This document shows positions 21,047 through 41,244 of a DNA stretch of 43,847 bases, piece after piece. Position 1 is the stretch's first letter, and each line of letters starts with the position of its first letter. The position numbers and the translations under genes were made by a program. A model generated the notes under the pieces. That model saw only the letters and a list, made by a program, of their open reading frames with translations. It did not search any database and was not told the origin of the DNA. The stretch spans positions 1 through 43,847 of the forward strand of contig JBHLLO010000020.1 in assembly GCA_048885535.1 (NCBI GenBank), given 5' to 3'. Source of the stretch: Candidatus Hermodarchaeota archaeon. GTDB taxonomy: Archaea > Asgardarchaeota > Lokiarchaeia > Sigyniarchaeales > SOKP01.

Positions 21047-22222
21047 ATGAAAAAAGTCTTTATTTTATCTCCATTAGCATTAGAAAATGGAAGAGGTGGA
21101 GAAATATCCTCTATGGAATTAGCATCAGGATTAAATAATTACTTTAATGTAATTTTTGCTGATACTAACCGTTTTTCAGGGAAAAAATTATTTTCCAGGA
21201 AAATAATCTTGAAGAAATTAAAAGGAATTAAAAATGTATATCGATTGAATTTTGCTACTGCTAGAATTGGTAATAAGTATTTTGATATCATCTATCCTTT
21301 GGAATTTAAAAAATTGTATAAATTAACAAAAAACTGTGATATTATCTATAGTTCAATTTCAAATCTTAAAATCAGTCTCATGTTAATGATTTTAAGTACT
21401 TTTAATCGTAAAGTAAAATTTATAATAGGGTATAGGAGACCATTACATTCAGAGAAATTATTTTCGATATATAACTTAAGATATAGATTGACAATACTCT
21501 TGCTCTCTATTTTTAAAAAGAGAGTGTACCACCATGCATTATCCCATTATGCGAAAAGGTTTTTGGATAACTTTTATGATCCTCAAAAAGTTATGCATAT
21601 AACTCATGGAATTCAATTAGATGATTATTTAGTAGAAGATGTTAACAAGGAACCCCTTAATGTATTAAAGTTCGTTTATATCGGCTATTTAGATGACATT
21701 CATAAAGGTGTCAAAGTTTTAGCGAAGGGGGTTGAACGTTTTATTGAAGATCATCGTCCTAAGGATGTTTTCTTCGAGTTTTGTGGGATGGGTCCTTTAG
21801 AATCCCAAATTAAAGCTTTAGAACACAAATTTCCAGAATATATAAGATTTAATGGATATGTAAGTTATGAAAAAATTGTTTCTTATTACCAGAAAAATGA
21901 TGTTTTTCTATTCTCATCAAGGAGAGAACCTTTTCCAAGGGTACTTATGGAAGCTTTAGCAGCAAAATTAGTAATTATATGTAGTAAAACAGTAGGTTCC
22001 ATTGAGTTATTACAAGGAAAAAATTTTGCCTTTTTTATTAAAGAATTGAATCCCGAGGAAATTAGTAAAAAAATTCTTGAAGTATATGAGGAATGGAAGA
22101 AAAATCTTGAACACTTTAGAAAATTACAATCTTTAGCTCAAGGTTTTGTATTTAATAATTATTCCTCTACTATCGAAATATCAATGCTTAAAGATTGGAT
22201 AGACAAAATAACATCTAAATAA
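21047..22222 (+). CDS. Glycosyltransferase family 4 (GT-B)
   Basis: GRGGE, IGYL...HKG, SRREPFPRVLMEA (E-x7-E). ATG 21047 is preferred over the track's TTG 20942, whose extension is T-rich intergenic-like sequence. Confidence 0.88.
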   Translation: MKKVFILSPLALENGRGGEISSMELASGLNNYFNVIFADTNRFSGKKLFSRKIILKKLKGIKNVYRLNFATARIGNKYFDIIYPLEFKKLYKLTKNCDIIYSSISNLKISLMLMILSTFNRKVKFIIGYRRPLHSEKLFSIYNLRYRLTILLLSIFKKRVYHHALSHYAKRFLDNFYDPQKVMHITHGIQLDDYLVEDVNKEPLNVLKFVYIGYLDDIHKGVKVLAKGVERFIEDHRPKDVFFEFCGMGPLESQIKALEHKFPEYIRFNGYVSYEKIVSYYQKNDVFLFSSRREPFPRVLMEALAAKLVIICSKTVGSIELLQGKNFAFFIKELNPEEISKKILEVYEEWKKNLEHFRKLQSLAQGFVFNNYSSTIEISMLKDWIDKITSK

Positions 22223-22227
22223 GGAAT

Positions 22228-23559
22228 TTAATCTTGAATAAAATCTCTTTCTTTAATTATATTTGGAATTTTTCCTTTTATATGAGGGGGAGTTATTATA
22301 CCATAGAGCTTTAATAGTAATGGAACAAAATCCAAATAGGAAATTTCTCTAATTTTTGTTTTTAATACATCTTTTCCATAGGCAATAAAGATTCCAATTT
22401 CTGAGTGATTCAAAGAATTGAAGTGATTTTTTACGAAATATGAACTTTTAACACTAAAAAGAATATTCTTTTTCATCACAATGATGTAATCGGGTAAGTA
22501 TTTTGAATCGAATTCTATTAATCTTTCAACATATTTACATTTTTTCAATGCAATTTCAAGATATTTCTTTAATTTTTTTTCTTTCTTAGATAAATATATT
22601 CCACCATAATTTGAATAGAAGTGCAGGAACCTTGATTTACTTAGTGAAACTTTTTTTTTCTCATGAGAGATTTTAGAACCAAATTTACCTTTTATTCTTG
22701 TTAAATAATACTTAAACCTGTTATGAAAGAAGGTGGTATCAAAGATATTTCTATTAATTAAACCGAATATTTTAATAAAAAGGCTCATTAGTTTAGACAA
22801 GAATTCTGTGTTATAAAACAGAATACCTTCTTTTTCTAAAAATCGTTTTATATTAAATTCATATTTATATGTATCTAATCCGTGGTCACTGATTATAAAC
22901 AAATTATCAAAATCATTAGAATCGAGTATTTCCCCCAAGAATTCATCAATTTTTATATAACCATCTTTTAAAATATTTTGAGTAAGTCCTAATTTATATT
23001 TAGGGTGATGTGTGATACAATCGGGAACGCGGACAATATAAACTAACAAATTAAAGGGTTCTCTGATTTTTTTTAAAAATAATTCCTTCTTAGTTTCAAA
23101 CGCTTTAAAAATCTCGTCTATATTAGACCCATCAATAATCCAATTCTGATCAATAAATTCACCCAGATAATTGGGAAAATACATTTTTTCACTCAACCGT
23201 GGAGTTAATAACCCCGTAATCATTTCACCATTAACATTCCAAGCAGGATAAGTAGAAGGAAGGTTTAAACAAAAAGTTCTTATATTTTCATTATTAAATA
23301 TGCTCTTTTCTTTCCATAAATGTGATGAAAAAACTCCAAAAGAAGGATCATAGAATGTACAATAACCAAGATCTAAAGTTGACAAACCAGAAAAAAGGCA
23401 GGGAAATGATGGGATAGTTACTGGAGGAATAGTAACTCTTAATTTAGAATAAAATCCATTCTTTAATAACCTTTTAAAATTAGGGAGTAACCCTTCTTTA
23501 ACATATGGAAAGATATGGTTAAAGTCACCACCATCAATTCCAATAACTATATTCTTTAT
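22228..23559 (-). CDS. Alkaline-phosphatase-superfamily protein (nucleotide pyrophosphatase/phosphodiesterase-like); probable ATA start
   Basis: The frame is open 58 codons above the track start: (ATA)KNIVIGIDGGDF...VTIPPVTIPSFPCLFSG. Also PDCITH, SDHG, NH..GIFIAYG, DFVP. Confidence 0.85.
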   Translation of the reverse strand: MKNIVIGIDGGDFNHIFPYVKEGLLPNFKRLLKNGFYSKLRVTIPPVTIPSFPCLFSGLSTLDLGYCTFYDPSFGVFSSHLWKEKSIFNNENIRTFCLNLPSTYPAWNVNGEMITGLLTPRLSEKMYFPNYLGEFIDQNWIIDGSNIDEIFKAFETKKELFLKKIREPFNLLVYIVRVPDCITHHPKYKLGLTQNILKDGYIKIDEFLGEILDSNDFDNLFIISDHGLDTYKYEFNIKRFLEKEGILFYNTEFLSKLMSLFIKIFGLINRNIFDTTFFHNRFKYYLTRIKGKFGSKISHEKKKVSLSKSRFLHFYSNYGGIYLSKKEKKLKKYLEIALKKCKYVERLIEFDSKYLPDYIIVMKKNILFSVKSSYFVKNHFNSLNHSEIGIFIAYGKDVLKTKIREISYLDFVPLLLKLYGIITPPHIKGKIPNIIKERDFIQD

Positions 23560-23589
23560 GCCTAACCCTCTTAAAATTTTATTTCTATT

Positions 23590-25047
23590 TTAATCTAAAT
23601 CTAATTTACCGATGGATTTTTGGATTTTAGTTTTCTCTTCTGAATCTTTCACCTTTAATAGATGTATATTTTTTAATTCTCTGAATTCTTCGATTTCTTT
23701 CAGATTCTCGTTTATTAAATTATTTTTCTCTAAAGGATCAGCAGATAAATCATAGAAATTCTCAATATTTTTTTCTTCATCAAAAATGTATTTTTTGTTT
23801 TTACTTCTTATTGAAATCAATACAAATCCTTCTTTCTGATTTCTTTTAATTTTTCCCTTTTTTTGATAACATTCTGATATAATATATTTTTCATCATCAA
23901 GAGATTCACCATAAATTAATGGTAGAAGACTTCTTCCTAAAATATTTTGAGGTTTTTTTATTTTGAAATAATCCAAAATGGTAGCTGGAATATCTCTCAA
24001 TTGAATTAGTGTATTCACTTTATTGATTTGTTTAACTTGTGCTAAATCCACAATAAACAGCGGAACTCTAAGTAGTTCATCATATACATTACCTTGATGG
24101 TGAAAGTATCCATGCTCATAAAAAGATTCACCATGATCTGCAGTTATTATTACTAAACAACTTTTTTTGAATTTCTTTTTTAATGTAGTGAATAGTACGT
24201 CAAAAGATTCATCTAAAAAGTTAATACCTCCATCATATAAATCAATTAATTCATTAATTAATTCTTTCGTGACATTATATTTTTCTGGTGTTTTACGGAT
24301 ATATTCATTTAGATATTCTCTTTTAGAATAATTGATATCAGATTTTCTAAATTTTAAAACATTTTCAGATGGGGGATTAAATGGACTATGAACATCCATA
24401 AAATGAGCCCATAAAAACAAAGATCCTCTGTGTTTATGGAGGAAAGAAATTATTTTTTTAATCACAAATTTAGCGTCATAAGCAATAGAAAGAAAAGGTA
24501 AGAAGATCCGGGTGAAAAGGGGGAATTTATCTCTAATCCAATTACTGATCTTATTAAAGCCCCTTAAACGATATGTGATTTTTCTCGAGAAATTTCTGTA
24601 GTTTAAAATCTTTCTTACTTTCAAACTTAATCTACTCTTGAATGTCAGATTCTTAGGTTTATGGAATTCTGCTTTATATCTCTCTCCATCTAAAAAGATA
24701 TTAAAGCCGCGTTTATAATTAAAAAATTCTCCTAAGTGTGGATTACTATGAATACCATATGTAAAAATGCCTTCATTCTTTAAGATCTGAGGAAGTGTTA
24801 TTTTATTTAAAGGTATAGGACTATAACCTCCATCAGAAAAGGGTAATTTTGAAGTAAAAATTGAAGAAAAAGATGAAGGTGTCTCTGGACCATTTGAGAT
24901 TGCATTAAAAAAGGTCGTTCCTTCTTCAATAAACCTTTCTAAGTTTGGAGCGGTGTTTCTATGATAGCCATATGATTTTATATGATCTGCTCTTAAAGCG
25001 TCGATAGTAATTAGGAAGACAGCTTTTTGTTCTGATGTGTTTACCAT
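23590..25047 (-). CDS. Sulfatase-like hydrolase/transferase (Thr at the nucleophile position)
   Basis: ITIDALRADH, ETPSSF, HFMDVHSP, LYDGGI, TADHGE, YDELLRVPL, DPLEKNN. Confidence 0.88.
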   Translation of the reverse strand: MVNTSEQKAVFLITIDALRADHIKSYGYHRNTAPNLERFIEEGTTFFNAISNGPETPSSFSSIFTSKLPFSDGGYSPIPLNKITLPQILKNEGIFTYGIHSNPHLGEFFNYKRGFNIFLDGERYKAEFHKPKNLTFKSRLSLKVRKILNYRNFSRKITYRLRGFNKISNWIRDKFPLFTRIFLPFLSIAYDAKFVIKKIISFLHKHRGSLFLWAHFMDVHSPFNPPSENVLKFRKSDINYSKREYLNEYIRKTPEKYNVTKELINELIDLYDGGINFLDESFDVLFTTLKKKFKKSCLVIITADHGESFYEHGYFHHQGNVYDELLRVPLFIVDLAQVKQINKVNTLIQLRDIPATILDYFKIKKPQNILGRSLLPLIYGESLDDEKYIISECYQKKGKIKRNQKEGFVLISIRSKNKKYIFDEEKNIENFYDLSADPLEKNNLINENLKEIEEFRELKNIHLLKVKDSEEKTKIQKSIGKLDLD

Positions 25048-25210
25048 TGTAAAAATATAATAATACTAAATTAAATAAGATTTTGAGTCTTTGAGGCTAT
25101 TATCTCTAATTCATTAATTTTATTTATTTTAATATTTTTTAAAAAATTATAACCTCTTATAAGCTAATTTTCTATTTATTAGAATTACCCTTAGAGTGAA
25201 AGCTATACTA

Positions 25211-26737
25211 ATGGAAACTTTTAATAAAAAAATTCTAATCATTGGCATTGATGGTGCTACATGGAGTATTTTAGATGAGGTCTTAGAGAAAGGTTATATG
25301 CCTTATTTAAAGAGTTTAAAAGAAAATGGGGCTCATGGAATATTAAGGTCTACAATTCCCCCCTTATCACCTTCTGCTTGGGGAACTATTCAAACTGGAA
25401 GAGATGCCATAAATAATCACATATATGAGTTTTATAGTTTTGACAAAATAACGAAGAAAGTAAAACTTGTTAATTCAAATTTTTTAAAAAATACAGTTTG
25501 GGATATTCTTAGTAGTGTAGGAAAGAAAGTAGCTGTAGTTAATATTCCTCTCACTTATCCTCCTAAGAAAGTAAATGGTTTTATCATAAGTGGAATAATG
25601 ACTCCTTCTCTTGAGTCTAATTTCACATATCCTTCTGATCTAAAACAAAAAATTTTGCAAAAAATACCTAATTACCAATTAAAATACATCGAAGAAAAGA
25701 AATATGGAAATCCCATAGTTTTTATGAAAAACTTTGTTAAACACAGGATAGAAAATGTAAAGGATAGAACAAAAGCATGTCTATATTTACTTCACAACAA
25801 TATTATTGATATTCTAATGGTAAATTTTCAGGCTAACGATATTTTACAGCATTCTCTTTGGGGTTATATTGAAAGAAGTCATAAACTATATGACGAAAAT
25901 GTTAAAGGTTTTATTTATAGTAATTTTCATAAAAATCTTGATTTTTGTATTGAAACCTTAGTCGAAGAATATAAAAGATATGCAAATGGGAAACTTTTAA
26001 CAATAATCTTATCCGATCATGGATTTGAGTCACATTTAAAGCAATTTTACTTAGGAGATTGGCTTTATAGGCTAAATCTTTTAAAAATTAAAAGAGGATC
26101 AATTAAATCAATAATTAGAAGGAAAATTAGGGAATTTATAGAAAAATTAACTATCCAATCTTTTCAAGTTAAAATTTTAAGGTTATTAAAAAGCCTTTCA
26201 AATATGATTAGTACAGTGCGATCACCAGATAAGAGGTCAACGATTATAGACACCAATTTAGATTTAGAAAATTCTAAAGTTTACTCATCTGGGATAAGTT
26301 TATATGGTTATATCTTTATTTTTCCTGAAGGAAAAGAGAGGCTTCAGATTATAAATTTATTAAAAAAGAAATTATATAATTTAGAGGATTCTGAAACTGG
26401 CTTAAAAATTGTAAAAAAAGTATTTACAAGGGAGGAAATCTATAAAGGTGATCATCCTCATTTAATTCCTGATTTAATTATTCAACCATCTAAGGGATAT
26501 TCATTCACTGGAATGTATAAAGGGAAAAAAAAGCTAATTGAAAAAATCACGTTGAAGGAATCGGAATCAATCGGAAAACACAATGAGGAAGGTATAATAA
26601 TAGTTAATGGTTCAAGCATTACTAAGAAAAAAATTGAAAAGGCATCCCTAAGAGATATTACTCCTACCATTCTTAGGTATTTTGATCTTCCTTTAAAAGA
26701 TGATTTAGATGGAAAAGTATTAGATTGTTTAGAATAA
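25211..26737 (+). CDS. Alkaline-phosphatase-superfamily protein (nucleotide pyrophosphatase/phosphodiesterase-like)
   Basis: IIGIDGATW, STIPPLSPSAW..IQTG, NIPLTYPP, DILQH, SDHGF, GKH, DITPTIL. ATG 25211 follows SD-like GAGTGA (track start is GTG 25196). Confidence 0.9.
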   Translation: METFNKKILIIGIDGATWSILDEVLEKGYMPYLKSLKENGAHGILRSTIPPLSPSAWGTIQTGRDAINNHIYEFYSFDKITKKVKLVNSNFLKNTVWDILSSVGKKVAVVNIPLTYPPKKVNGFIISGIMTPSLESNFTYPSDLKQKILQKIPNYQLKYIEEKKYGNPIVFMKNFVKHRIENVKDRTKACLYLLHNNIIDILMVNFQANDILQHSLWGYIERSHKLYDENVKGFIYSNFHKNLDFCIETLVEEYKRYANGKLLTIILSDHGFESHLKQFYLGDWLYRLNLLKIKRGSIKSIIRRKIREFIEKLTIQSFQVKILRLLKSLSNMISTVRSPDKRSTIIDTNLDLENSKVYSSGISLYGYIFIFPEGKERLQIINLLKKKLYNLEDSETGLKIVKKVFTREEIYKGDHPHLIPDLIIQPSKGYSFTGMYKGKKKLIEKITLKESESIGKHNEEGIIIVNGSSITKKKIEKASLRDITPTILRYFDLPLKDDLDGKVLDCLE

Positions 26738-26853
26738 TAATTGACAGATTTTTCACATTTTGAATCAAATTTCATGATTTTCAACAAATTTTTTAATTTT
26801 TATCAATTCTAACTAGTTAAAGTTGAGTGTTTCACTTTATCTGGTGATTTCTG

Positions 26854-28161
26854 ATAAGAAATATTATTATTGGAATAGATGGAGGCTGCTTTGAAAGCAT
26901 TTTACCATTAATTAAAAAAAACTTACTTCCTAATTTTAAAAAGATTATCAATGAAGGTTATAGTGCACCTGTACAGGTAACAGTTCCCCATGCTACAATC
27001 CCTTCATGGCCATGTCTTTTTTCTGGGCTTGAAGTTTCTGAATTAGGGTATTATACATTCATCCATCCAACGAGAGGAATTTTTAATTCGAAAGTATGGA
27101 GAGATAAATCAATTTTATCTATTAAAGATTTAAAAATCTTTGCTATAAATGTACCGGGTACTTATCCAGCTTGGCCAATTAATGGGGAAATGATCACAGG
27201 AATTTTATCACCCTCAATTTCTTGTTATCCTAAAGAGTTACAAGAGAAAATTGAAGATAAATGGATTATTGAGGGCAAAAATTTATCAGAAATTCTTAGT
27301 GCATTTGAAATGAAAAAGAACTTGTTTTTAAAAAAAATAAAAGAAGATTTCGATTTATTAGTATTTGTTATTAGAGTGCCTGATGCCATATCCCATCGAG
27401 TTTTAGGAGAGAAAGAAACCATCTTAAATGCAATGAACCTTGGTTATAAGAAGATTGACGAATTCCTTGGAGAAATTTTGGAGGAAAAGCAATTTGATAA
27501 TCTACTTATTTTTAGTGATCATGGATTAAAATTTTATAACAAAGTATTATACTTCCCTAGATTATTGGAAAAAAAGGGATTACTATATTTAAATGAGTTA
27601 AAAGGAAAAAGGATTAATAGCCTCATATTGAAGTTTTACGATATTATTAGACCTCTTTTGCGCGTGTCTCTTTCAAAAAAGGTTTATCAGAAATTATTTA
27701 ATGCTGAAAAAAGGGAAATTGAAAGGAAAAAAGATAGAAAATTAACTTTTTTTGATAAGAGTAAACCTAAAACATTTATCCAAAAATTAACCTCAAATAT
27801 GGGAGCGCTATTTTTATTTGGAAAAGATCAAGAAAAAAAGACCAAAATAAAAGAACAGCTTGAAAAAGATAAACATATTGATCAAATTTTTGAATATTCC
27901 AAATTAGGATTTCCAGACTTTTTAATTGCTCTTAAAGATGATTTTATTTTTTTTAAAGATTGTTCCTACTTTTTAAAAAGAAACACCGAAGTATTTAGTC
28001 ATACTAATAGGGGATTCTTTATGGCGTATGGTAAGAATATAAGAAAAGATTCAACAAATTTGATAAATTACCTAGATATTGCACCTACAATTCTTAAGCT
28101 ATATGATAAAGAAAAACCAAATTACATGAAAGGTAAAGCCTTAAATATCTTTAAAATCTGA
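26854..28161 (+). CDS. Alkaline-phosphatase-superfamily protein, paralog of 22228-23559; probable ATA (or CTG 26851) start
   Basis: The frame is open 112 codons above the first ATG (27190): (ATA)RNIIIGIDGGCF...VTVPHATIPSWPCLFSG...NVPGTYPAWPINGEMITG. Also PDAISH, SDHG, SH..GFFMAYG, DIAPTIL. GGTGA lies 6 nt upstream. Confidence 0.87.
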   Translation: MRNIIIGIDGGCFESILPLIKKNLLPNFKKIINEGYSAPVQVTVPHATIPSWPCLFSGLEVSELGYYTFIHPTRGIFNSKVWRDKSILSIKDLKIFAINVPGTYPAWPINGEMITGILSPSISCYPKELQEKIEDKWIIEGKNLSEILSAFEMKKNLFLKKIKEDFDLLVFVIRVPDAISHRVLGEKETILNAMNLGYKKIDEFLGEILEEKQFDNLLIFSDHGLKFYNKVLYFPRLLEKKGLLYLNELKGKRINSLILKFYDIIRPLLRVSLSKKVYQKLFNAEKREIERKKDRKLTFFDKSKPKTFIQKLTSNMGALFLFGKDQEKKTKIKEQLEKDKHIDQIFEYSKLGFPDFLIALKDDFIFFKDCSYFLKRNTEVFSHTNRGFFMAYGKNIRKDSTNLINYLDIAPTILKLYDKEKPNYMKGKALNIFKI

Positions 28162-28175
28162 AAATTAAACCTCAC

Positions 28176-29369
28176 TCATAAGATATTTTTTCGCTTCCTA
28201 TATTTCTTATCCTTGTAAATAAGAATCTCAAAAAATACTTCAATTGTTATTATAGCTTCTATGTAAATATAAAAAATGATTTTCAAATATAGAGATATGC
28301 TAATCTTATTTCGAAATTCCTTTTTGATGGAAATTAGAAAGAAGATTACTTTTCTAATTTTTTTTAGATAAAGGCTAAATAAACCTATAACGCCTAGGAT
28401 AAACAGAAAAAAGTTAAAGAGGAGAAAAGTTGGACAAATTAAGATATATATTGATAGAATTGTCATTAAAGTAAATTTAAGATAACGAGTTTTAGTTTTA
28501 CCCTTGAGCTTGTTAAAGAGAGGATTCTGTATCCATCTTTTATTTTGACTCATATAGGTTTTGATTTTATCAGGAAAAAAAGTAAAAATTCTCCAACGGT
28601 AATTTTCTAACTCATATATATCAAATCCCTTTTCTGAAAGTTTTACCCCAACCCATCCATCTCCTATAAGTTCACCCTGAGGGAATTTCCCTATCTCTTT
28701 TAAAACATCATATCTCAAACAAGTATGGGGACTAATTCTTTTCGATTTAGGTTTAAATCTTTTTCGAAATCTAGGATTTCTATCAATATTCAAATAATTA
28801 ACCAAACTTAATTTTTCTTGTTGCTTTAAAGGCCTAGTAGATGTGATTATTATATTTTTATTTTGATTTACAATTAAGGAAATCATCTTAAGAAAAATCT
28901 CATTAGTAATATAAGAATCAGCATCAATTAAGTACACCAATCCTTCCGAAACATAAGCTAAACAATCGTTTATTGCTCTTATCTTACCGCCTCCACCTTT
29001 TTGTTCTAGAACTATAAAGTTGTTATATTTTTTGAAAGATTCAGCTATAACTTTTGTCTCTTCGGATCCACCAGCATTCACTATTACTCTCAAATAGGGA
29101 TAAGTCAAATTCAAAATTGATAATAGGCATTCCTGGAATAACTTACCCTCTTTCCACGCAGGAATTATAAAATTAACAACGGGAGTTTTTTTTAATTGTT
29201 CGAAAGTTACTATTTCAGAATCATCAAATTCTTTAAGTTGAGTTAAATAATTCAAATCTCTAACTACAAGGGCAATAATATGATAACCTAAAACAATTAA
29301 AAACAAGAGGAATATGAAAAATGGTGAAGATATTATTGCAAAAACATTAATAAGAAATTCAATCACCAT
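28176..29369 (-). CDS. Membrane glycosyltransferase family 2 with QxxRW motif
   Basis: N-terminal TM, IIPAWKE, GGGKIRAIN, IDAD, QNKRW, C-terminal TM helices; SD AGGTGA 6 nt upstream. Confidence 0.85.
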   Translation of the reverse strand: MVIEFLINVFAIISSPFFIFLLFLIVLGYHIIALVVRDLNYLTQLKEFDDSEIVTFEQLKKTPVVNFIIPAWKEGKLFQECLLSILNLTYPYLRVIVNAGGSEETKVIAESFKKYNNFIVLEQKGGGGKIRAINDCLAYVSEGLVYLIDADSYITNEIFLKMISLIVNQNKNIIITSTRPLKQQEKLSLVNYLNIDRNPRFRKRFKPKSKRISPHTCLRYDVLKEIGKFPQGELIGDGWVGVKLSEKGFDIYELENYRWRIFTFFPDKIKTYMSQNKRWIQNPLFNKLKGKTKTRYLKFTLMTILSIYILICPTFLLFNFFLFILGVIGLFSLYLKKIRKVIFFLISIKKEFRNKISISLYLKIIFYIYIEAIITIEVFFEILIYKDKKYRKRKNIL

Positions 29370-30644: not shown

Positions 30645-30748
30645 ATATTTAATTCCTAACAGTTCATTTTTTTCAAGAAAAAATTTATCTTTCATTCCTA
30701 ATATTCTATGTTATTCATAAAAAAAGAATCTTCTATTTTTGAATAGAT

Positions 30749-32404: not shown

Positions 32405-32411
32405 AACTCAA

Positions 32412-33296: not shown

Positions 33297-33423
33297 GTTT
33301 CATTATAATAAATTAAATATTATCTAAAAACCAAATGCATTTGCATTATTAAGATATGACCTTTAAGGAATGGAAAAATCTAAAAATTTCTAAAATATTA
33401 TTCTATTAAGTGAATTAGAAAAT

Positions 33424-34887
33424 ATGATAAAAAGGACTATCTTAATTACAATCGATTGTTGGAGATTAGATAGATTAGGGATTTTTGGTTATAACGATTC
33501 TGTTTTGCCTAATATCAATAAATTATCTAACAACGCTAGTACATTTGAAAATATGATAGCCAATTCCTCAAATACGGCCCCCTCATTTTATGCTTTGTTT
33601 ATGTCAAAAATTCCTGTTATAGATGGGCAATATAGCCCCCTCCCTTCTGATCAAAAGCAATTTACTGAAATTCTGAGAGAAAACAAAATAAAGACTTGTG
33701 GAATTCATTCTAATCCCCATTTAGGGAAGTTATGCAATTATAACAAAGGATTTGATGATTTTTTTGATATGTTTGAAGAACCTGAATATTATTCATTGAG
33801 AAAGAATCTAATAAATAGAATTTACAAGATTTTTGACTTTTTTGGATTAAGAACCAGAATAACCAAATTCAATAAGAAATTGTTAAAAAGAATTAGATTG
33901 AAAAAGTTCAAACCATCACTAACTACAAAAAAAATCAATTACGCATATTCCAATGCAAAAGATGTTACAAGGAAAGCAATTGATTGGATTAGTAAAAATT
34001 ATAAATCAAATTTTTTCTTATGGATTCATTATATGGATGCTCATCGTCCGTATTTTCCTCCTGATAAATTTATAAAGAGGGTAAGTAATCGAGAAATCTC
34101 AGAATCTAAAAAGCTATTTCTCAGAGATATTGTTAATTATTTTAAACCTGACTCAAAAGAAAGATTGGATATTGATAATAATTCTATTGAGTTAACTAAT
34201 ACTCTATATGATGCTGAATTAAACTATGTTGATTATTATATCGGAATTTTGCTCGAATATTTAAAGCATATTAAGATTTTTTCTAATGTAAATCTTATTT
34301 TAACAGCAGATCATGGGGAAGCTATATTTGAACATGGTTTCTTAGGGCACCAAATTTCGCTGTACGATGAATTGCTAAAAATTCCTCTAATAGTTCGACT
34401 AGCTAATAATCAGAAAACACAAAATTTAATCAAATTTTATGCCGAATTGATAGATGTTGCTCCTACAATATTAGATACTTTCAATATTACTTCGAATAAA
34501 AATTTTCGCGGAAAAAGTCTAATTCCGCTAATGATTAACGCCGATACTTCTAAAAAGTCAGAAAATATCCTCAGTGCTTTACTACATCATAATAACAAGA
34601 TATATTCTTTTTATCGTAAAACAGACGAGTCTTATTTTTTAATGATATCAACCAGAACTAAAAATTGGAAGTTAATATTTGATGAACAAACAAATGACTA
34701 TGAATTATATAATTTAACAGAAGATCCAAAAGAATTAACAAATTTATATTATAAAGAAAATATGCAATTAGAAGAAATAAAGCAAAACCTATTAACTGTA
34801 ATAAAGGTTGCAATGGAAAAGCTTTATAATGAAAAACAGAAGATTAAAAGGGTTATTCTCAAGAATATTTCAAAATTTTCAATTTGA
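33424..34887 (+). CDS. Sulfatase-like hydrolase/transferase (Thr at the nucleophile position), paralog of 23590-25047
   Basis: ITIDCWRLD, NTAPSF, HSNPHLG, HYMDAHRPY, LYDAEL, TADHGE, LYDELLKIPL, DPKELTN. Confidence 0.88.
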   Translation: MIKRTILITIDCWRLDRLGIFGYNDSVLPNINKLSNNASTFENMIANSSNTAPSFYALFMSKIPVIDGQYSPLPSDQKQFTEILRENKIKTCGIHSNPHLGKLCNYNKGFDDFFDMFEEPEYYSLRKNLINRIYKIFDFFGLRTRITKFNKKLLKRIRLKKFKPSLTTKKINYAYSNAKDVTRKAIDWISKNYKSNFFLWIHYMDAHRPYFPPDKFIKRVSNREISESKKLFLRDIVNYFKPDSKERLDIDNNSIELTNTLYDAELNYVDYYIGILLEYLKHIKIFSNVNLILTADHGEAIFEHGFLGHQISLYDELLKIPLIVRLANNQKTQNLIKFYAELIDVAPTILDTFNITSNKNFRGKSLIPLMINADTSKKSENILSALLHHNNKIYSFYRKTDESYFLMISTRTKNWKLIFDEQTNDYELYNLTEDPKELTNLYYKENMQLEEIKQNLLTVIKVAMEKLYNEKQKIKRVILKNISKFSI

Positions 34888-34923
34888 TCGGTTGAATTTA
34901 AGTAATTTTTACTAGTTTTATAT

Positions 34924-35550
34924 CTATTTAATTTGTTTGAGTTTCTGGATAACCTTATTTGGATTGGGTGCTCTTAAAATAGTGCTGGCGCTAGTTAATA
35001 TATCTGCATTACATAGTTTTTTAGCATTTTTAAGATTGACACCCCCGTCTACATCAATTTTAAAATTAAATTTTTTTTTAAATTCTGCTAAATGGTTTAC
35101 TCTATTAATAGTTTCAGGTAAAAATTTTTGCCCAGAATAACCTGGATTCACTCCTAAAATTAAAATTAAATCTATTAAAGATATTAACCCTAAAATTTCT
35201 GATATTTTAGTTTGTGGATTAACAGCTAATCCTATTCTCTTTTTATTTTTTTTTAAGATGTTAATAATTGGAATTTTATCATTATTAATTTCATAATGAA
35301 AGAAAATACCATCTACAAAAGCCACTATCTTTTCAATATATTCTATTGGATTTTGAACCATCAAGTGGACTAAAATAGGAATCTTAAAATTATCTTTAAT
35401 GAGGTTTATGACTTTTAGATTGAGGTTTTGAGAAGCAACAAATTTACCATCCATAACATCTACGTGGAAATAATCTATGTTATCTAAACCTTCAACTAAT
35501 TTGAGATCGAAACCAGCCCGTGCATGTAAAGAAACAGCAACTTCTTTCAT
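34924..35550 (-). CDS. rpe: Ribulose-phosphate 3-epimerase
   Basis: HVDVMDGKFV, VHLMV, FHYE, GVNPGYSGQKF, VDGGVN. Confidence 0.93.
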   Translation of the reverse strand: MKEVAVSLHARAGFDLKLVEGLDNIDYFHVDVMDGKFVASQNLNLKVINLIKDNFKIPILVHLMVQNPIEYIEKIVAFVDGIFFHYEINNDKIPIINILKKNKKRIGLAVNPQTKISEILGLISLIDLILILGVNPGYSGQKFLPETINRVNHLAEFKKKFNFKIDVDGGVNLKNAKKLCNADILTSASTILRAPNPNKVIQKLKQIK

Positions 35551-35557
35551 AATAGAT

Positions 35558-36490
35558 TTATTTTCGATTTATTAGCTCTAAAAGTTTATCTTTAATATTT
35601 GTAATATTTAACCCATAAGCATCTAAAAGCTTCTCACGAGAACCAGATTGAATAAAAGAATCATTTATTGCTAGAAATTTCATGGGTAAAGACTGTTTTT
35701 GAGAGAGAATACGAGCTATAATGCTGCAGAAACCACAATAAATATTATGCTCCTCGATAACAACTATTCCCTTCATGGATTCAACTTCATTAAATAACCT
35801 CTCTTCATTAATAGGTTTGATTGAAGAGAGATTAATTACCTTAATGGAACAATTTAATTCTTCCTCAAATATAGTAGCGTTGGTAACTGCTAGAGCACTT
35901 CCATATCCCATTCCAATAAGACAATAATCGCTTCCTTCTTTCAATATATCTGGTTCTCCTAAAAGAAAATTGTAATTTTCTTCATGGATGTTTGAAAAAC
36001 TAGCTCTTGGCAATCTAATGTAAACAGGACCGTGCATACGAAATGCATATTCAAGCATCTGTATTAGTTCAATTGAATCGGATGGCACTAATACAGTCAA
36101 ATTTGGTAGGATTGACATCAGACTTATATCTTCTAATGCATTATGAGTACTTCCATCCTCTCCGACAATGCCCCCATGAGTAGTTATGATTTTAACATTC
36201 AAATTATCATGACAAGCCATCCTAATGAATTCCCAAGCTCTTCCAGTTGTAAATATAGAAAATCCACTGACTACGGGAATCTTTCCAGAAATCGCTAAAC
36301 CTAATGCCACACCAACCATATTTTGTTCAGCAATTCCCATATTAAAAAATCTATCTGGATATTTTTTAGCAAATTTATAAGTTCGTGTCGAAGATGATAA
36401 ATCAGAATCTAAAACTACAATATTGCTATTTTTACTGCCTATTTTTACTAAAAAGTCCCCGAATGTATCTCTGAGAGAATCTTCTTTCAT
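35558..36490 (-). CDS. Transketolase, C-terminal (pyrimidine-binding) subunit
   Basis: DSDLSSST, GIAEQNM, GEDGSTH..LED, GPVYIRL, EEHN. ATG 36490 follows GAGGT. Confidence 0.93.
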   Translation of the reverse strand: MKEDSLRDTFGDFLVKIGSKNSNIVVLDSDLSSSTRTYKFAKKYPDRFFNMGIAEQNMVGVALGLAISGKIPVVSGFSIFTTGRAWEFIRMACHDNLNVKIITTHGGIVGEDGSTHNALEDISLMSILPNLTVLVPSDSIELIQMLEYAFRMHGPVYIRLPRASFSNIHEENYNFLLGEPDILKEGSDYCLIGMGYGSALAVTNATIFEEELNCSIKVINLSSIKPINEERLFNEVESMKGIVVIEEHNIYCGFCSIIARILSQKQSLPMKFLAINDSFIQSGSREKLLDAYGLNITNIKDKLLELINRK

Positions 36491-36501
36491 TTTACTATAC
36501 C

Positions 36502-37359
36502 TCAATTTAAATTCCTTTTAATTTTTTCAAGTTCTTTCAAGGCAATCTCATATTCATCTTTATTAGGCGGTCTTCCATGAAATTTTTTCGTATGTTCCAT
36601 AAATGACACTTCTGAACCTTTAACTAAATAAGAGATAATAACTTTAGGTTTTTTCAAAATTGTTTTGGATCGTTCAAACGCGAGAATTGTTTCATTTATA
36701 TTTGAGCCATCTACTTCGATTACTTCCCAACCAAAAGCTTTCCATTTTTCAGCTAAAGGTTCTAAAGCCATAATTTCTTCTGTTGAACCATCAATTTGAA
36801 TTCCATTTCGATCAACAATTGCAATCAAATTCTCCAATTTGTAATGACTTGCAGCCATTGCGGCCTCCCATATTGCTCCTTCATTTAATTCTCCATCTCC
36901 TAATAATACAAACACAGAATTAGCCTTCTTATCAATTTTTGATGCTAATGCACAACCAACTCCAATAGATAAACCCATTCCTAAAGAACCAGTGGAAATC
37001 TCTATTCCTAAACTTGATTTTTTTACAGGATGTCCTTGTAAGTCAGATCCAAGTTTTCTGAGGGATAAGAGTGCTTCTCTTCTTATAAGCCCAATTTTAG
37101 ATAAAACGGCATATAAAGCTGGAGCTGCATGACCTTTACTCAAAATAAAGATGTCTCTTTCTTTCCATTGTAAATCCTCTTTGTTTATCCTCATAATTTT
37201 TGTATATAGTAAATAAAGAATACTTACACATGATAAAGAACCTCCTGGGTGCCCAGATTGCGCTTCATATATCATTTTTAAGATATCTTTTTTAAGATCT
37301 ATTATCTCCATTGAAATTTGTTTTACTTCATTATCTGAAATTACCACTAACTTAATCAC
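36502..37359 (-). CDS. Transketolase, N-terminal (TPP-binding) subunit
   Basis: SGHPGGSLS, LSKGHAAPALY, LQGHP, TGSLGMG, GDGELNEG..WEA, DRN. Confidence 0.94.
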   Translation of the reverse strand: MIKLVVISDNEVKQISMEIIDLKKDILKMIYEAQSGHPGGSLSCVSILYLLYTKIMRINKEDLQWKERDIFILSKGHAAPALYAVLSKIGLIRREALLSLRKLGSDLQGHPVKKSSLGIEISTGSLGMGLSIGVGCALASKIDKKANSVFVLLGDGELNEGAIWEAAMAASHYKLENLIAIVDRNGIQIDGSTEEIMALEPLAEKWKAFGWEVIEVDGSNINETILAFERSKTILKKPKVIISYLVKGSEVSFMEHTKKFHGRPPNKDEYEIALKELEKIKRNLN

Positions 37360-37365
37360 GAATTT

Positions 37366-38367
37366 TTATAATTTATTATTAAAAACAGTTGAAATGTATT
37401 TTGCTAAAATGTCTGAATTAAAAAATTCTACAGGGGGAAGGGAGGCAGAAAGTGCTGCTGCAGACATAGCAATCTTAACTCCCTCTAAAGCTGAAATCTT
37501 AGAGGCATAAACTAAACCTAATACCGCCATAATCGTACTACCAACAGCTACATAACTTCGAACAGGTTGGGTTAATAATGGCTTTATTCTTTCCACATTT
37601 TCCTGATCTTTAAAAAATAAATAGGAATCAGTTTCCAAATAATTTAGAAGGAGGTTTTTACATTTTGATGAATTTATAATACGTTTACCAGCAATAATAA
37701 TACTTGTTTCAGTACAGCAATCTATTGAAAAATTACTTAAGGCTTTTTGAAGATTTATTTTCATTAAATCAATGTCTTCATAAAGATAATAGTTTGAAAT
37801 ATTTGGACGGGCAATTATGGGCACATTCTTATAATTCTTTTTTAAGTTTTCTAACAATTTTATGATAAACTCATCTCTAAATAATTCTCCAGCACCATAG
37901 TCCAAGATGATGATAGAATCAATTTCTGTGAAATTTGATTGAATTAAGTTAAAAAAACTCTTAATAGTCTCTTTTGATATTTCCATTGAATAATCGGTCT
38001 CTAATCTTAATAAGTGTTGATTTTTTGCTTTAATTCGAGTAATCTGTGGAGTACTAATTTCACTATCTACAACTATATTCGCTGGATTGATATTTAGATC
38101 TTTCATCTTTTTAATGAAATAATTACCCTCATAGTCATCTCCTACAATGGTACATATATCTGGAACTCCGCCTAATGATTTAATAAATTGTAAAACTAAT
38201 CCAATCGCCCCTAAATATGTCTCATGACGTTCAATCTTTACATTTGGGACGGGAGCATCAGGAGAGATTTTATCCGCTTGTCCAAAAATATATCGATCAA
38301 TTAATGCTTCTCCAATTATTAGAACCTTTTTATTCTCCCACTTTGGTAATAAATCGATTAAAGCCAT
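37366..38367 (-). CDS. RfaE/HldE domain I (heptose-7-phosphate kinase)-like PfkB protein with degenerate catalytic motif
   Basis: VLIIGEALIDRY...KISPDAPVP (HldE: GD.MLD...RISPEAPVP), LLRLE, LDYGAG. The C-terminal DVTGAGD motif is replaced by SYVAVGS. Confidence 0.8.
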   Translation of the reverse strand: MALIDLLPKWENKKVLIIGEALIDRYIFGQADKISPDAPVPNVKIERHETYLGAIGLVLQFIKSLGGVPDICTIVGDDYEGNYFIKKMKDLNINPANIVVDSEISTPQITRIKAKNQHLLRLETDYSMEISKETIKSFFNLIQSNFTEIDSIIILDYGAGELFRDEFIIKLLENLKKNYKNVPIIARPNISNYYLYEDIDLMKINLQKALSNFSIDCCTETSIIIAGKRIINSSKCKNLLLNYLETDSYLFFKDQENVERIKPLLTQPVRSYVAVGSTIMAVLGLVYASKISALEGVKIAMSAAALSASLPPVEFFNSDILAKYISTVFNNKL

Positions 38368-38379
38368 TTTCAATCTTTC

Positions 38380-39036
38380 TTATTTTTTTAATTTTGCTTG
38401 TAGTTTTTCCCAATCTTTAAGAAAGGAGTCTAATCCTTCATCTGTTCTAGGGTGCTTAAACATTTTTTCAAGAACGCTGAAAGGGATTGTAGCAATATGA
38501 GCCCCCATCTTTGCTGCCTCAATTACATGCCTTGAATTCCTTACTGATGCCACAATGATTTCAGATTGAAAATCATATGCCTGGATAATCTGTATAGATT
38601 CCCACAACATATCAATTTCATCTTGACCATCATCCATCAACCTTCCAATAAAAGGGCTTATATAAGAAGCTCCAGCTTTGGCAGCTATTAACACTTGGTT
38701 TTGAGAAAATACTAATGTAACATTGGTCCTTATTCCTTCAGATTCAAGAATTTTCACAGCTTTGATACCATCCTTTGTCATAGGAATTTTTATAACAATG
38801 TTTGGTGCAATTTTTGCTAATTCTCTTGCTTCTCTTATCATCTCTTCAGTTTTCAACCCCACTACCTCCGCACTTACAGGACCATCAACAATTTTACATA
38901 TTTTTTTTAATTGTTCCATAGGTTCAGCGCCTTCTTTCGATAATAGAGTGGGGTTGGTAGTTACTCCGTCAATTATTCCCAAATCTTGCATTTCTTGAAT
39001 TTGTTCTAAATTAGCAGTATCTATAAAGAATTTCAT
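38380..39036 (-). CDS. tal: Transaldolase (short TalC/FSA family)
   Basis: [42 protein letters not shown]. Confidence 0.93.
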
Positions 39037-39066
39037 AATATTTTCACTTCACTAGTTTTTAATACT

Positions 39067-39630
39067 CTATAATTTTGAATCTATTTTTATATTTTTAGCA
39101 AATTCTAATAAATTATCAAAGATAAAATCAGGGATGATTTTATTTATTTTTTCTCTTTCTTCTTTCCCATAACCTGTTAAAACTAATACAGTTTGGCATT
39201 CTGCTGCTATTCCTGTTTCAATATCTTTTAATGTATCCCCTACCATAAATGATTCCCTTAAATTAATATTGTATATCTCTTTTGCTTTTAATATCATTCC
39301 TGGATTTGGCTTTCTGCAATTACATGGTCCAGTGAAATCAGGATGATGAGGGCAATAAAAAATGTCATCTAATTTTAAATTATTTTCATATAAGATTCTC
39401 TTCATCTTATTATGAATTTCGTTAAGAGTCTCTTCTGAGAAATAACCTCTAGCTATTCCTGCTTGATTAGTTATCACTATCAAAAGATAACCTAGATTTT
39501 TTAGAATTCTTATAGCTTCAATGGATCCTTCAATAAATTTAAAATTATCAGGGTCGGATAGGTGACTCACTTCTTCATTTATAACCCCATCTCTATCCAA
39601 GAAAATAGCTTTATTAGTATTTATCATCAT
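39067..39630 (-). CDS. gmhB: D-glycero-D-manno-heptose 1,7-bisphosphate phosphatase
   Basis: FLDRDGVIN, TNQAGIARG, CPHHP...CNCRKP, VGD...D; adjacent to gmhA. Confidence 0.92.
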   Translation of the reverse strand: MMINTNKAIFLDRDGVINEEVSHLSDPDNFKFIEGSIEAIRILKNLGYLLIVITNQAGIARGYFSEETLNEIHNKMKRILYENNLKLDDIFYCPHHPDFTGPCNCRKPNPGMILKAKEIYNINLRESFMVGDTLKDIETGIAAECQTVLVLTGYGKEEREKINKIIPDFIFDNLLEFAKNIKIDSKL

Positions 39631-39633
39631 TAA

Positions 39634-40200
39634 TTAACTAAAAAGTTCCTTTTCAACTAAATAACATATAATATGTCCAACTAAAATATGCCCCTCTTGA
39701 ATCCGAGGAGTATCAGTAGATGGAATCATAAGACAATAATCTACTATCTTTTCGATTTGATTTTCTTTTTGTCCGGTAAAACCAATCGTAATGGCACCCT
39801 TTTCTTTAGCTTTATTCAATCCTTTTATCACATTAGGAGAATTTCCTGATGTGCTTATTCCAATTACAATGTCTCCTTTTTCAACAAAAGAAGATACTTG
39901 TCTTTCAAATACAAATTCATATCCATAGTCATTAGCGGTCGCTGTAAGAACAGAAGTATTAGTGTGAAACGCTAAAGCTGGAAGCGATTCACGATCTTTG
40001 TAGAACTTACCCACAAATTCAGCAGCAATATGTTGGGCGTCTGCTGCACTACCACCATTTCCAAATAATACTACTTTCTTCTTGTTCTTATACCCATTAA
40101 TAATTTCTTTAGAAATCTGCGCTATAAGGGGCACTAATTTCTTAATTTCTTCCTTTACTCCAATACTTTCATTTATTATTGATATAATTTCATTTTCCAT
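39634..40200 (-). CDS. gmhA: Sedoheptulose-7-phosphate isomerase
   Basis: GNGGSAADAQH.AAE, TATANDYG, ISTSGNS.N, TPRIQEGH. Confidence 0.95.
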   Translation of the reverse strand: MENEIISIINESIGVKEEIKKLVPLIAQISKEIINGYKNKKKVVLFGNGGSAADAQHIAAEFVGKFYKDRESLPALAFHTNTSVLTATANDYGYEFVFERQVSSFVEKGDIVIGISTSGNSPNVIKGLNKAKEKGAITIGFTGQKENQIEKIVDYCLMIPSTDTPRIQEGHILVGHIICYLVEKELFS

Positions 40201-40236
40201 AAATATCATTTTAGTTAATATAATTAAGTCTTAAAC

Positions 40237-41244
40237 TTATAAATTCCAAACTTCTAATCCTTTAGGATTAAAGTGAAAATTTACAACAATTCCTCCAATT
40301 TTTTTCAATTCTTTTATAACTTCATGTTTTTTATCTGGATCAGAAAAAAGGAGTAAATGACCACCTCCTCCTGCACCAAGCAATTTCCCACCTATAACAC
40401 CAAATTTCCGTGATGTTAAATAGAAGTTTTCAACATTTTTGTTTGAGATTTTTGAACTAAGACTTTTTTTAGCTAGCCAACCTTTATGAAGAAGTTCACC
40501 AAATTCGCTTAACTTATTTATGTTTTTTGACTCAATTACTGCTTTCATTCCATGGGCAACATCTTTTAAATCTTGCATAGTATCAATAAATGATTTTCTT
40601 TCAACTTTATAACCTTCTAATACTTCATCTTGAATATCCGAGGAAAAATGTGAACCTCCTATATAACATAGAATTAATCGAAATTGTATTTCATTAAGAA
40701 TTTGCTCTGTTGTACTTATAGGGGTTACTTTCACTATGTCAGTAAATTCCATGAAATTAAAACCCCCATACGCAGCAGCAAATTGGTCCTGATAGCCACC
40801 TTTTTGTCTTAATTCAATTCTTTCAATATTATAAGCTTTTTGGGCAATTTCATGCCTTGTCAAATTCAATTGATAAAATTCATTAAACGCCCCAATAAGT
40901 GCAACAACTAAAGTAGAAGACCCACCCATTCCTGAACCTGCGGGTAAATCTGAAGAAACGCTAATATCAAATCCATTTGAAATCTTTAATACATTGATTG
41001 TTCCTTTGAATAGCTCATGACCTTCAGAATAATTATCGTCTCCAACACTGAACATATGTTGTTCATTAGAATCAGTAAAAACTACTTTTACCTTTGTATC
41101 ATCCCGAGGTGTAAGTGAAATATAAATATGACGATCTATTGCTGTGTTTATTACACATCCTCCATGTTCGGTGCAATAAGGGGGTAAATCTGTACCACCT
41201 CCTCCAAAACTTACTCTGAAAGGAGCTTTCGAACGTATTATCAT
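40237..41244 (-). CDS. hddA: GHMP kinase, D-glycero-alpha-D-manno-heptose-7-phosphate kinase (HddA)-like
   Basis: SKAPFRVSFGGGGTD, PAGSGMGGSS, GGYQDQFAAAYGGFN, GGKLLGAGGGG. Confidence 0.88.
   Translation of the reverse strand: MIIRSKAPFRVSFGGGGTDLPPYCTEHGGCVINTAIDRHIYISLTPRDDTKVKVVFTDSNEQHMFSVGDDNYSEGHELFKGTINVLKISNGFDISVSSDLPAGSGMGGSSTLVVALIGAFNEFYQLNLTRHEIAQKAYNIERIELRQKGGYQDQFAAAYGGFNFMEFTDIVKVTPISTTEQILNEIQFRLILCYIGGSHFSSDIQDEVLEGYKVERKSFIDTMQDLKDVAHGMKAVIESKNINKLSEFGELLHKGWLAKKSLSSKISNKNVENFYLTSRKFGVIGGKLLGAGGGGHLLLFSDPDKKHEVIKELKKIGGIVVNFHFNPKGLEVWNL

Follow-up and report, generated by a model that had tools for sequence, protein, structure and literature searches.

GDP-D-glycero-alpha-D-manno-heptose is made by the GmhA-HddA-GmhB-HddC pathway, which is known from the Campylobacter jejuni capsule and the Aneurinibacillus S-layer glycan. 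In Halobacterium salinarum, two sulfatase-like proteins with an alkaline phosphatase (AlkP) core that are encoded in the aglB cluster, the membrane protein VNG1056C and the cytosolic VNG1057C, act as N-glycan sulfotransferases according to gene deletion and expression in Haloferax volcanii (PMC11980604). The same report names PDB entry 5G2U as the closest structure of VNG1056C; the words donor, phosphosulfate and formylglycine do not occur in its text. Agl7 of Hfx. volcanii (HVO_2046), although annotated as an N-acetylgalactosamine-4-sulfatase, is needed for sulfation in the low-salt Agl5-Agl15 pathway (PMC3892788), and the N-glycan of Thermoplasma acidophilum contains both heptose and 6-C-sulfo-fucose (PMC11407970). 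Enzymes for nucleotide-activated heptose have been reported in archaea (commentary PMC11461863), and the N-glycans in the one Asgard glycoproteome that we found, that of P. syntrophicum, are linear and include units of 304.13, 311.08 and 303.10 Da that were left unassigned, heptose not being mentioned in the part of that article available to us (PMC11284389). Here we analyse a 43,847-bp stretch of DNA (the window), which is the whole of contig C20 of its source assembly (G000; 3.09 Mb, 112 contigs, 91.6% complete), and within it a locus of about 20 kb that combines genes for glycan assembly and tailoring with an operon for heptose supply. Judging from comparison with related genomes, the stretch is most likely one version of a variable surface-glycan island kept by a genus of Promethearchaeota between pheS-pheT-rph and ileS. 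With slightly better than even confidence, we propose that the island directs the cytoplasmic assembly of a lipid-linked, heptose-containing sulfated oligosaccharide, which would be flipped by a Wzx-type flippase and probably transferred by AglB.

Gene identities in the window were assigned from the open reading frame listing together with Pfam and NCBIfam scans. The glycan half consists of, in this order, the glycosyltransferase GT4a, AlkP1, SulfL1, AlkP2, AlkP3, a membrane glycosyltransferase of family GT2, the glycosyltransferase GT4b, a Wzx-type flippase, a sulfotransferase and SulfL2, where SulfL stands for sulfatase-like proteins. It converges with a minus-strand operon of eight genes, hddA-gmhA-gmhB-tal-hldA-like-tktN-tktC-rpe (34924-41244), whose intergenic distances range from a 4-nt overlap up to 30 nt. 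A preliminary description of this DNA had listed the same genes, all of which we found at the positions given there; its count of six tailoring genes versus three glycosyltransferase genes holds as well, and so does its statement that the window contains no aglB, no genes for the synthesis of 3'-phosphoadenosine 5'-phosphosulfate (PAPS; sat/cysC) and no sugar nucleotidyltransferase gene. It had also guessed an Asgard host. Relatives of SulfL1 were found in 23 loci, 17 of which carry Promethearchaeota or Promethearchaeia in their titles; three further loci (50-52% identity) are titled 'uncultured archaeon', and the remaining ones are from one Woesearchaeota and three bacterial metagenome-assembled genomes (22-31% identity). 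The titles and identities of these loci thus point to an Asgard archaeon as the source organism, in agreement with that guess.

Like the haloarchaeal systems (VNG1056C/VNG1057C, Agl7), the locus places AlkP-core or sulfatase-annotated proteins inside an archaeal glycosylation cluster. Further common features are the soluble cytosolic type (VNG1057C), a flippase encoded in the cluster (Agl15) and, as predicted for the Asgard locus, modification of the lipid-linked glycan prior to its flipping. Among the sequence matches of SulfL1 is 5g2t_A, of which 5G2U is a further entry of the same protein. On the other hand, the Asgard locus belongs to a different phylum, its likeness to the haloarchaeal systems is one of descriptions and gene context, and it adds a canonical PAPS-type sulfotransferase, three paralogues of the nucleotide pyrophosphatase/phosphodiesterase (NPP) type and a heptose operon. 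Thermoplasma offers another archaeal protein glycan with heptose and a sulfur-bearing sugar; however, its sulfo-sugar has a C-S bond (a sulfonate) and not a sulfate ester, and the Asgard glycan is predicted from genes. Bacterial Wzx-dependent O-antigen and capsule loci resemble the locus in having a fixed site, variable genes, low G+C content (here 0.26-0.28 in the glycan half and about 0.32 in the operon, compared with 0.29-0.36 left of the island) and a combination of glycosyltransferases, Wzx and sugar supply. In contrast to them, the window has no recognisable gene for a Wzy polymerase or for a regulator of chain length, and AglB is encoded elsewhere in the assembly. In view of these precedents, the idea that sulfatase-like enzymes add sulfate to archaeal glycans is already known, and the preliminary label 'undescribed' went too far: N-glycan sulfotransferases of this kind are known from Halobacterium (PMC11980604) and implied for Agl7 (PMC3892788), and heptose occurs together with a sulfo-sugar in Thermoplasma (PMC11407970). 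Literature searches on sulfatases in Asgard archaea and Lokiarchaeota and on heptose in Asgard archaea listed no title or abstract opening that describes the island, a scope that leaves bioRxiv supplements outside. What is new is the presence of candidate proteins of this kind in Asgard archaea, as batteries of two to five AlkP-fold genes, their Thr-type active site similar to that of EptA and the coupling to a sat-AlkP-cysC trio, as well as the fusion of pentose-phosphate and heptose genes in one operon with a kinase-dead HldA homologue.

That the locus is a variable island at a fixed site follows from a comparison with related genomes (designated G; fetched loci are designated L and contigs of the source assembly C). 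Both its glycan half and its operon sit between pheS-pheT-rph and ileS. Among 19 archaeal loci (L012-L030), the SulfL1 orthologue adjoins rph-pheT-pheS in 12 and has a GT4a orthologue as its neighbour in 11. On the opposite side, the heptose operon is directly adjoined by ileS in all eight fetched contigs that have sequence there, and in five further genomes ileS and SulfL1 are found 21-34 kb apart on one contig. The operon itself is patchy: an hddA orthologue (71-83% identity) is present in 8 of the 36 genomes sampled from the same genus. What lies between the flanks varies by genome. Besides GT4 and GT2 glycosyltransferases, there are genes for export (flippases or an ABC exporter), sugar pathways of the NeuB and rml types, methyltransferases and a pyruvyl transferase, as well as extra genes for sulfatase-like and AlkP proteins and for sulfotransferases that belong to three different Pfam families. 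The rph gene of the window (20178-20906), which adjoins pheS-pheT, encodes an RNase PH of the bacterial type (TIGR01966, 330.9 bits vs a cut-off of 141.5).

The preliminary description had left open whether the two halves are linked in other genomes. They are: a single contig of G018 carries ileS, the heptose operon, Wzx, GT4b, two sulfotransferases, GT2, AlkP3 and SulfL1, and glycan genes directly follow the heptose operon in six more genomes (that of L035, G022, G029, G062, G063 and G065). Since the halves are joined or adjacent elsewhere, their arrangement in the window is not a chance neighbourhood. It might still be argued that they are neighbours and not parts of one pathway, the operon supplying another glycan (for example, that of a second cluster on contig C99) or general metabolism and the glycosyltransferase and flippase genes building a heptose-free glycan. 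The halves are indeed convergent, separate transcription units; the operon stays by ileS regardless of the neighbouring content, and the assembly has no tkt, tal or rpe genes outside it; the island has no recognised heptosyltransferase or heptose nucleotidyltransferase, and a second glycan cluster does exist on C99. However, the operon has gmhA, gmhB and hddA within it, and a housekeeping operon would be expected genus-wide and not in 8 of 36 genomes inside a variable island. Together with the glycan genes that directly follow the operon in seven other genomes, this makes a separation of the two halves unlikely in our view. In two of these genomes (G029 and G062), genes for an NTP_transferase, a 4,6-dehydratase-like protein, an RmlC-like epimerase and a reductase, none of which is in the window, come directly after the operon (L042:9547-12816 and L049:12344-15662). 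This four-gene set presumably resembles cassettes that modify GDP-heptose, which also speaks against separate pathways.

The proteins that gave the locus its sulfatase-like appearance are SulfL1 (23590-25047, minus strand; PF00884, 9.9e-39) and SulfL2 (33424-34887, plus strand; PF00884, 9.9e-36), two sulfatase-fold proteins that are 33-36% identical. Although sulfatases are among the sequence matches of SulfL1 in PDB, none of 29 SulfL family members in the fetched loci has the C/S-x-P-x-R formylglycine motif. The formylglycine column is occupied by Thr in 24 sequences and by Ser in three, that is, in all 27 aligned sequences, two of the 29 being incomplete there. We aligned the SulfL active site with two Escherichia coli proteins, AslA and EptA (catalytic domain). 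In this alignment, the SulfL Thr coincides with the serine of the AslA SSPTR motif and with the EptA threonine, the DHGES motif is the same as in EptA while AslA has DNG at this place, and a His is shared by SulfL and EptA at an equivalent position. Moreover, SulfL1 and SulfL2 do not have the Arg of sulfatases, the lysine of AslA GKWH falls into an alignment gap and the lysine of AslA GAKG is replaced by Gln. In applying the alignment to SulfL, we take the two AslA lysines to be a sulfate-binding pair and the D-N motif to bind metal. The earlier reading of these genes as sulfatases is therefore not borne out: by their sequence motifs, SulfL1 and SulfL2 are not formylglycine sulfatases, and SulfL1 may be considered a candidate sulfatase-like glycan sulfotransferase.

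These observations also bear on whether the locus might be catabolic, its sulfatases and phosphatases stripping sulfated or phosphorylated sediment glycans. The Pfam names (Sulfatase, SGSH_C, Phosphodiest) are all that favours this. The same assembly encodes two canonical Cys-type sulfatases with the CMPNR-ATL-TG signature (C4:49786-51327 and C6:73698-75314), unlinked to the island, and an anaerobic sulfatase maturase (anSME; C23:40058-41266, 405.8 bits, above the cut-off) far from it; a search of the assembly for a formylglycine-generating enzyme (FGE) found none. Hence, the contrast between Cys-type sulfatases and Thr-type SulfL proteins lies within one genome. Hydropathy revealed no hydrophobic stretch in the sulfotransferase or in any of the five AlkP-superfamily proteins, SulfL1 and SulfL2 having no hydrophobic N-terminus, and all six proteins should therefore act in the cytoplasm. 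In addition, the Pfam and NCBIfam scans detected no glycoside hydrolase or uptake system in the stretch, and the AlkP-fold genes are interleaved with three glycosyltransferases, a flippase and a sulfotransferase. We rejected the catabolic interpretation on the formylglycine motif, the EptA-like site, the Cys-type sulfatases elsewhere and the missing signal peptides, membrane anchors or other hydrophobic segments, and consider it extremely improbable.

A more serious competitor to sulfation by the AlkP-fold proteins is tailoring with phosphate. All five of them might add phosphoethanolamine- or phosphoglycerol-like groups or trim phosphodiesters, leaving sulfate to the canonical sulfotransferase only. 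The Thr, DHGES and His that SulfL1 and SulfL2 share with EptA, together with the missing sulfatase Arg and both Lys, fit such a role, and so do features of the three NPP-type proteins. AlkP1 (22228-23556, minus strand; PF01663), a predicted soluble protein with a Thr nucleophile, and its paralogue AlkP3 (26854-28161, plus strand) are 42% identical. AlkP2 (25196-26737, plus strand) is a full-length PF01663 match (2.7e-29) that has Ser at the nucleophile position, aligns to phosphonoacetate hydrolase 3t02 and shares 30% identity with the AlkP that relatives encode beside sat. In the family alignment, D9, D177, H181, D222, H223 and H383 are invariant and T48 nearly so. We take these residues to correspond to the metal ligands of NPP enzymes, and the resulting D/T/D/H/D/H/H set of AlkP1-3 counts for phosphate chemistry. 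For an AlphaFold2 (AF2) model of AlkP3 (mean predicted local distance difference test, pLDDT, 78.9), the best Foldseek matches are ENPP5, ENPP6, ENPP3, ENPP1 and the Xanthomonas (Xac) NPP, all with probability 1.00; the model thus resembles phosphodiesterases of the NPP type, among them ENPP6 and ENPP7, which are specific for phosphocholine. In the ESM Atlas, AlkP3 falls only into generic 'alkaline phosphatase family' clusters. Taken together, the alignment and the model identify AlkP1-3 as predicted intact NPP-type enzymes with a complete Thr/bimetal site.

AlkP1 and AlkP3 might be mistaken for shortened pseudogenes, a possibility that we rejected: their frames are open upstream and encode conserved N-terminal G-I-D-G (GxDG) and Thr motifs. 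Upstream of AlkP1 the frame is open to 23589 and contains no ATG, GTG or TTG. Nor does any of ten distinct genes of the AlkP1/3 family (window positions 23556 on the minus and 26854 on the plus strand; L012, L013, L014, L016, L017, L019 and L026) have one of these codons before the conserved (K/R)-N-(I/V)-(I/V) N-terminus. The codon at the start position is ATA in eight of them, ATC in one and ATT in one. A few bases upstream there is a GGTG(A)-like Shine-Dalgarno box (GAGGG in AlkP1), and in L017 a stop codon immediately precedes the ATA. By this comparison, AlkP1 and AlkP3 are intact genes with probable ATA starts at 23556 and 26854, respectively. Gene callers would drop about 70-115 residues of the proteins of this family, the nucleophile included.

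The assignment of the 294-residue protein (32412-33296, minus strand) as a PAPS-type sulfotransferase draws on several lines of evidence. Alone, its sequence scores below the Pfam cut-off, but many of its 202 homologues match PF13469 and PF00685. Residues of the 5'-phosphosulfate loop (S14, G16, R17, G19 and T20) and of the 3'-phosphate motif (R109 and S117) do not vary among 24 sequences and line up with SYPKSGT and IVRNPKD..S of SULT7A1. The AF2 model (pLDDT 91.8) is matched by Foldseek to TPST and SULT structures with bound 3'-phosphoadenosine 5'-phosphate (PAP), with probability 1.00 and template modelling (TM) scores of 0.56-0.60. By its modelled fold and PAPS-binding motifs, the protein is thus predicted to be a sulfotransferase.

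A connection to sulfate activation is seen in relatives, where sat (ATP sulfurylase), a PF01663 AlkP gene (about 460 codons, with a GLDC motif in the product) and cysC form a tight trio (L047:7326-10453, L048:7089-10261, L051:2226-5556, L043:14058-17180, L056:6501-9655 and L057:2-3049). In G022 and G061-G065 the trio is located within the island or next to the heptose operon, and L013 has an incomplete version of it. In G018 and G010 it is found in a second glycan cluster together with a PF00685 sulfotransferase and a flippase. The placement of an NPP-like protein between sat and cysC suggests a role in the turnover of pyrophosphate, PAP or adenosine 5'-phosphosulfate (APS) or in sulfuryl transfer. 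The glycan clusters of relatives hold further sulfotransferases as well. In G061-G064, all of which carry the sat trio, three query types detected no canonical sulfotransferase in the rph-ileS stretch (covered with Pfam in full for G061, G063 and G064 and in part for G062). Sat is encoded in 13 of 36 same-genus genomes and in 10 of 24 genomes outside the genus. SulfL1-like proteins occur in 12 of the former, 11 of them Sat-positive, and in five of the latter, all Sat-positive. AlkP1/3-like proteins (8 of 36 in the genus, 0 of 24 outside) and the hddA orthologue (8 of 36) are without exception in Sat-positive genomes. In other words, SulfL and AlkP1/3 are found almost only in genomes with Sat, which counts against a purely phosphate-based function of these proteins. 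Likewise, the window contains no CDP-alcohol or other phospho-donor gene, and the sulfatase-like proteins of Halobacterium add sulfate (PMC11980604). On balance, we regard phosphate tailoring by all five AlkP-fold proteins as rather unlikely, even though sat and cysC, as discussed below, were not found in the assembly, which counts in its favour.

As for heptose, the minus-strand operon contains, besides rpe, tktC and tktN (34924-37359; Pfam and NCBIfam), whose non-oxidative pentose-phosphate enzymes yield sedoheptulose-7-phosphate, a gene of the transaldolase/fructose-6-phosphate aldolase family (tal/fsa; 38380-39036; TIGR00875, 305.3 bits, above the cut-off). The operon copies of tkt, tal and rpe being the only ones in the assembly fits a dedicated supply of sedoheptulose-7-phosphate. 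The operon further contains genes for the heptose-1,7-bisphosphate phosphatase GmhB (NF006506, 209.5 bits, above the cut-off) and the sedoheptulose-7-phosphate isomerase GmhA (models at about 1e-53; both genes in 39067-40209) and for an HddA-like heptose-7-phosphate kinase of the GHMP family (40237-41244; NF049969, 6.4e-72), which is matched over its full length by PDB entries of HddA (4n3o and 3k85) and WcbL (5e-57 to 4e-54). Thus, GmhA, HddA and GmhB are present and adjacent as in the GDP-heptose pathway, to which relatives add the NTP-transferase, dehydratase, RmlC-like epimerase and reductase. The Asgard version differs in that HddC is neither in the window nor clearly in the assembly, in the joining of the operon with tkt, tal and rpe and in the presence of an HldA-like protein without catalytic residues.

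This last protein (37366-38373; rfaE_dom_I, 150.7 bits vs a cut-off of 345) resembles the kinase domain of HldA/HldE and keeps the N-terminal sugar-binding half, to which its sole PDB match, HldA 4e84, is confined. Compared with E. coli HldE, GAGD has changed to AVGS and NxxE to NLQK in all 12 orthologues, and both the catalytic Asp and the Glu are missing from every one of the 120 best homologues in the database (identity 60-100%), several of which are labelled 'bifunctional HldE'. It thus could not be upheld that this gene, which the preliminary description had called hldE*, encodes a heptose kinase, and we rejected the idea of two active kinases serving alpha and beta routes, since the HldA-like protein has no kinase catalytic residues. 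HddA is therefore the likely working kinase, and the route probably comprises, by gene content, HddA, GmhB and a nucleotidyltransferase encoded elsewhere. Because the HldA-like protein is conserved, it seems to be functional, though not as an ordinary kinase; more likely it binds heptose phosphate for regulation or has another role. The earlier claim that an Asgard archaeon has a biosynthetic, flippase-dependent locus for a glycan, together with a heptose supply of its own, is supported.

The remaining genes of the glycan half are those for glycan assembly and export. GT4a extends from 21047 (ATG, the start taken in the preliminary description) or 20942 (TTG) to 22222 on the plus strand (Glycos_transf_1, 1.1e-21), and by hydropathy the TTG start would add a hydrophobic N-terminus. 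The membrane GT2 (28176-29369, minus strand; Glycos_transf_2, 7.7e-17) has three hydrophobic stretches and a weak likeness to PgaC/NodC, and GT4b (29388-30695, minus strand) is a Glycos_transf_1 match (8.1e-41). The Wzx/MOP-type flippase (30749-32404, plus strand) has at least ten hydrophobic segments and orthologues in related islands, its Polysacc_synt score of 29.3 bits being barely above the cut-off. The only match to AglB/STT3 in the assembly is an unusually long open frame of 1301 residues on another contig (C12:53633-57535).

From the observed gene identities, active-site make-up, synteny and co-occurrence we infer the following pathway, including each of its substrates, the activation and incorporation of heptose, the sulfate donor and the final acceptor. 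Tkt, Tal and Rpe of the ileS-side operon would make sedoheptulose-7-phosphate, which GmhA, the GHMP kinase HddA and GmhB would convert to D-glycero-D-manno-heptose-1-phosphate, to be activated by a nucleotidyltransferase encoded elsewhere. GT4a, GT4b and the membrane GT2 would build the oligosaccharide, attached to a lipid carrier, on the cytoplasmic side of the membrane. There the PAPS-type sulfotransferase would add sulfate to it, and so, most likely, would the soluble SulfL1 and SulfL2 of the Thr type, the latter two similarly to Halobacterium VNG1056C/VNG1057C. AlkP1-3 may belong to the same tailoring stage, either in nucleotide or PAP(S) turnover or in adding further anionic groups. Wzx would then flip the product, and AglB would probably transfer it to surface proteins.

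Several observations weigh against this pathway. The preliminary description had suggested looking for aglB, sat/cysC and hddC elsewhere in the genome; aglB is indeed present on C12, but neither sat and a true cysC nor hddC were found in the 91.6%-complete assembly. Therefore, the sulfation that it proposed stands as a likely theme, given the sulfotransferase fold with PAPS motifs and the sat-AlkP-cysC trios and extra sulfotransferases of relatives, but PAPS synthesis is not accounted for in the assembly. APS-kinase Pfam matches were rejected as CysC, since they correspond to PSTK and an Mrp/ApbC ATPase. The PSTK-like gene (C54:17774-18595; TIGR03574, 7e-49, 166.5 bits, below the cut-off of 290.5) points to selenocysteine machinery. 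As for the missing sat and cysC, contig C99 (L058:1-2546) carries a second glycan cluster with GT4, methyltransferase and rml-like genes that runs off the contig end, as seen in comparison with L056 and L057. The GT4 gene flanking the trio-containing cluster of G018 and G010 has an orthologue (70-73% identity) 1.3 kb from this end. The place of the trio in these two genomes thus maps to the contig end, and so its absence from the assembly is weak evidence of a true absence. The Sat co-occurrence counts, in turn, come from related genomes and physically linked genes, and represent an association and not an independent proof. The SulfL active site resembles those of phosphoryl transferases, so that phosphate-based tailoring would fit its chemistry equally well. 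On the heptose side, no clear equivalent of HddC or HldC was found in the assembly, which has seven generic NTP_transferases (the best score with the HddC model being 115 bits vs a cut-off of 300) and one weak rfaE_dom_II-like protein (C19:32596-33066; 58.8 bits vs 181.5) in which no STT motif was seen; the operon-linked NTP_transferase of relatives has no orthologue there, only matches of 25-27% identity. Scanning the window genes with Pfam and NCBIfam revealed no heptosyltransferase of the GT9 type, and the NCBIfam scores of gmhA, hddA and the HldA-like gene are below the curated cut-offs.

Elsewhere in the window, a CTP_transf_like gene (15625-16080), its sole nucleotidyltransferase, was considered and rejected as a heptose nucleotidyltransferase, since it encodes the phosphopantetheine adenylyltransferase (PPAT) of coenzyme A synthesis. 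Left of the island are also a multi-PAS histidine kinase with a response regulator (2884-5746) and pyruvate phosphate dikinase (5914-8616), for which we saw no link to the glycan locus. A scan for bacterial-type promoters and terminators was uninformative (51 promoters found vs 54 expected; 3 terminators vs 3.2).

It is tempting to speculate, although we find the idea doubtful at present, that Thr-nucleophile proteins of the AlkP superfamily constitute a second, mechanistically distinct class of glycan sulfotransferases, which would include SulfL and perhaps the NPP-fold AlkP proteins together with the one encoded between sat and cysC. Such enzymes would transfer a sulfuryl group from PAPS or APS onto Thr and then hand it on to a sugar, in the way in which phosphoethanolamine transferases handle phosphate, and the Asgard batteries would produce multiply sulfated surface glycans with heptose, the HldA-like pseudokinase either sensing heptose phosphate or being a new pathway enzyme. 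The locus would extend the sulfatase-like sulfotransferases beyond haloarchaea, and the Thr nucleophile in an EptA-like site and the genomic coupling to sat-AlkP-cysC provide two mechanistic leads. It also exposes three systematic errors in the annotation of Asgard genomes: the label 'sulfatase' given to proteins in which the formylglycine motif is missing, the label 'bifunctional HldE' given to a protein that has a single domain and is kinase-dead, and AlkP genes cut short by a probable ATA start. Asgard archaea are the closest prokaryotic relatives of eukaryotes, and their cell-surface chemistry is almost unknown. For a heptose-containing sulfated glycan of these organisms the locus would offer a concrete parts list, while a hypervariable island at a fixed site suggests a serotype-like diversity of their surfaces.

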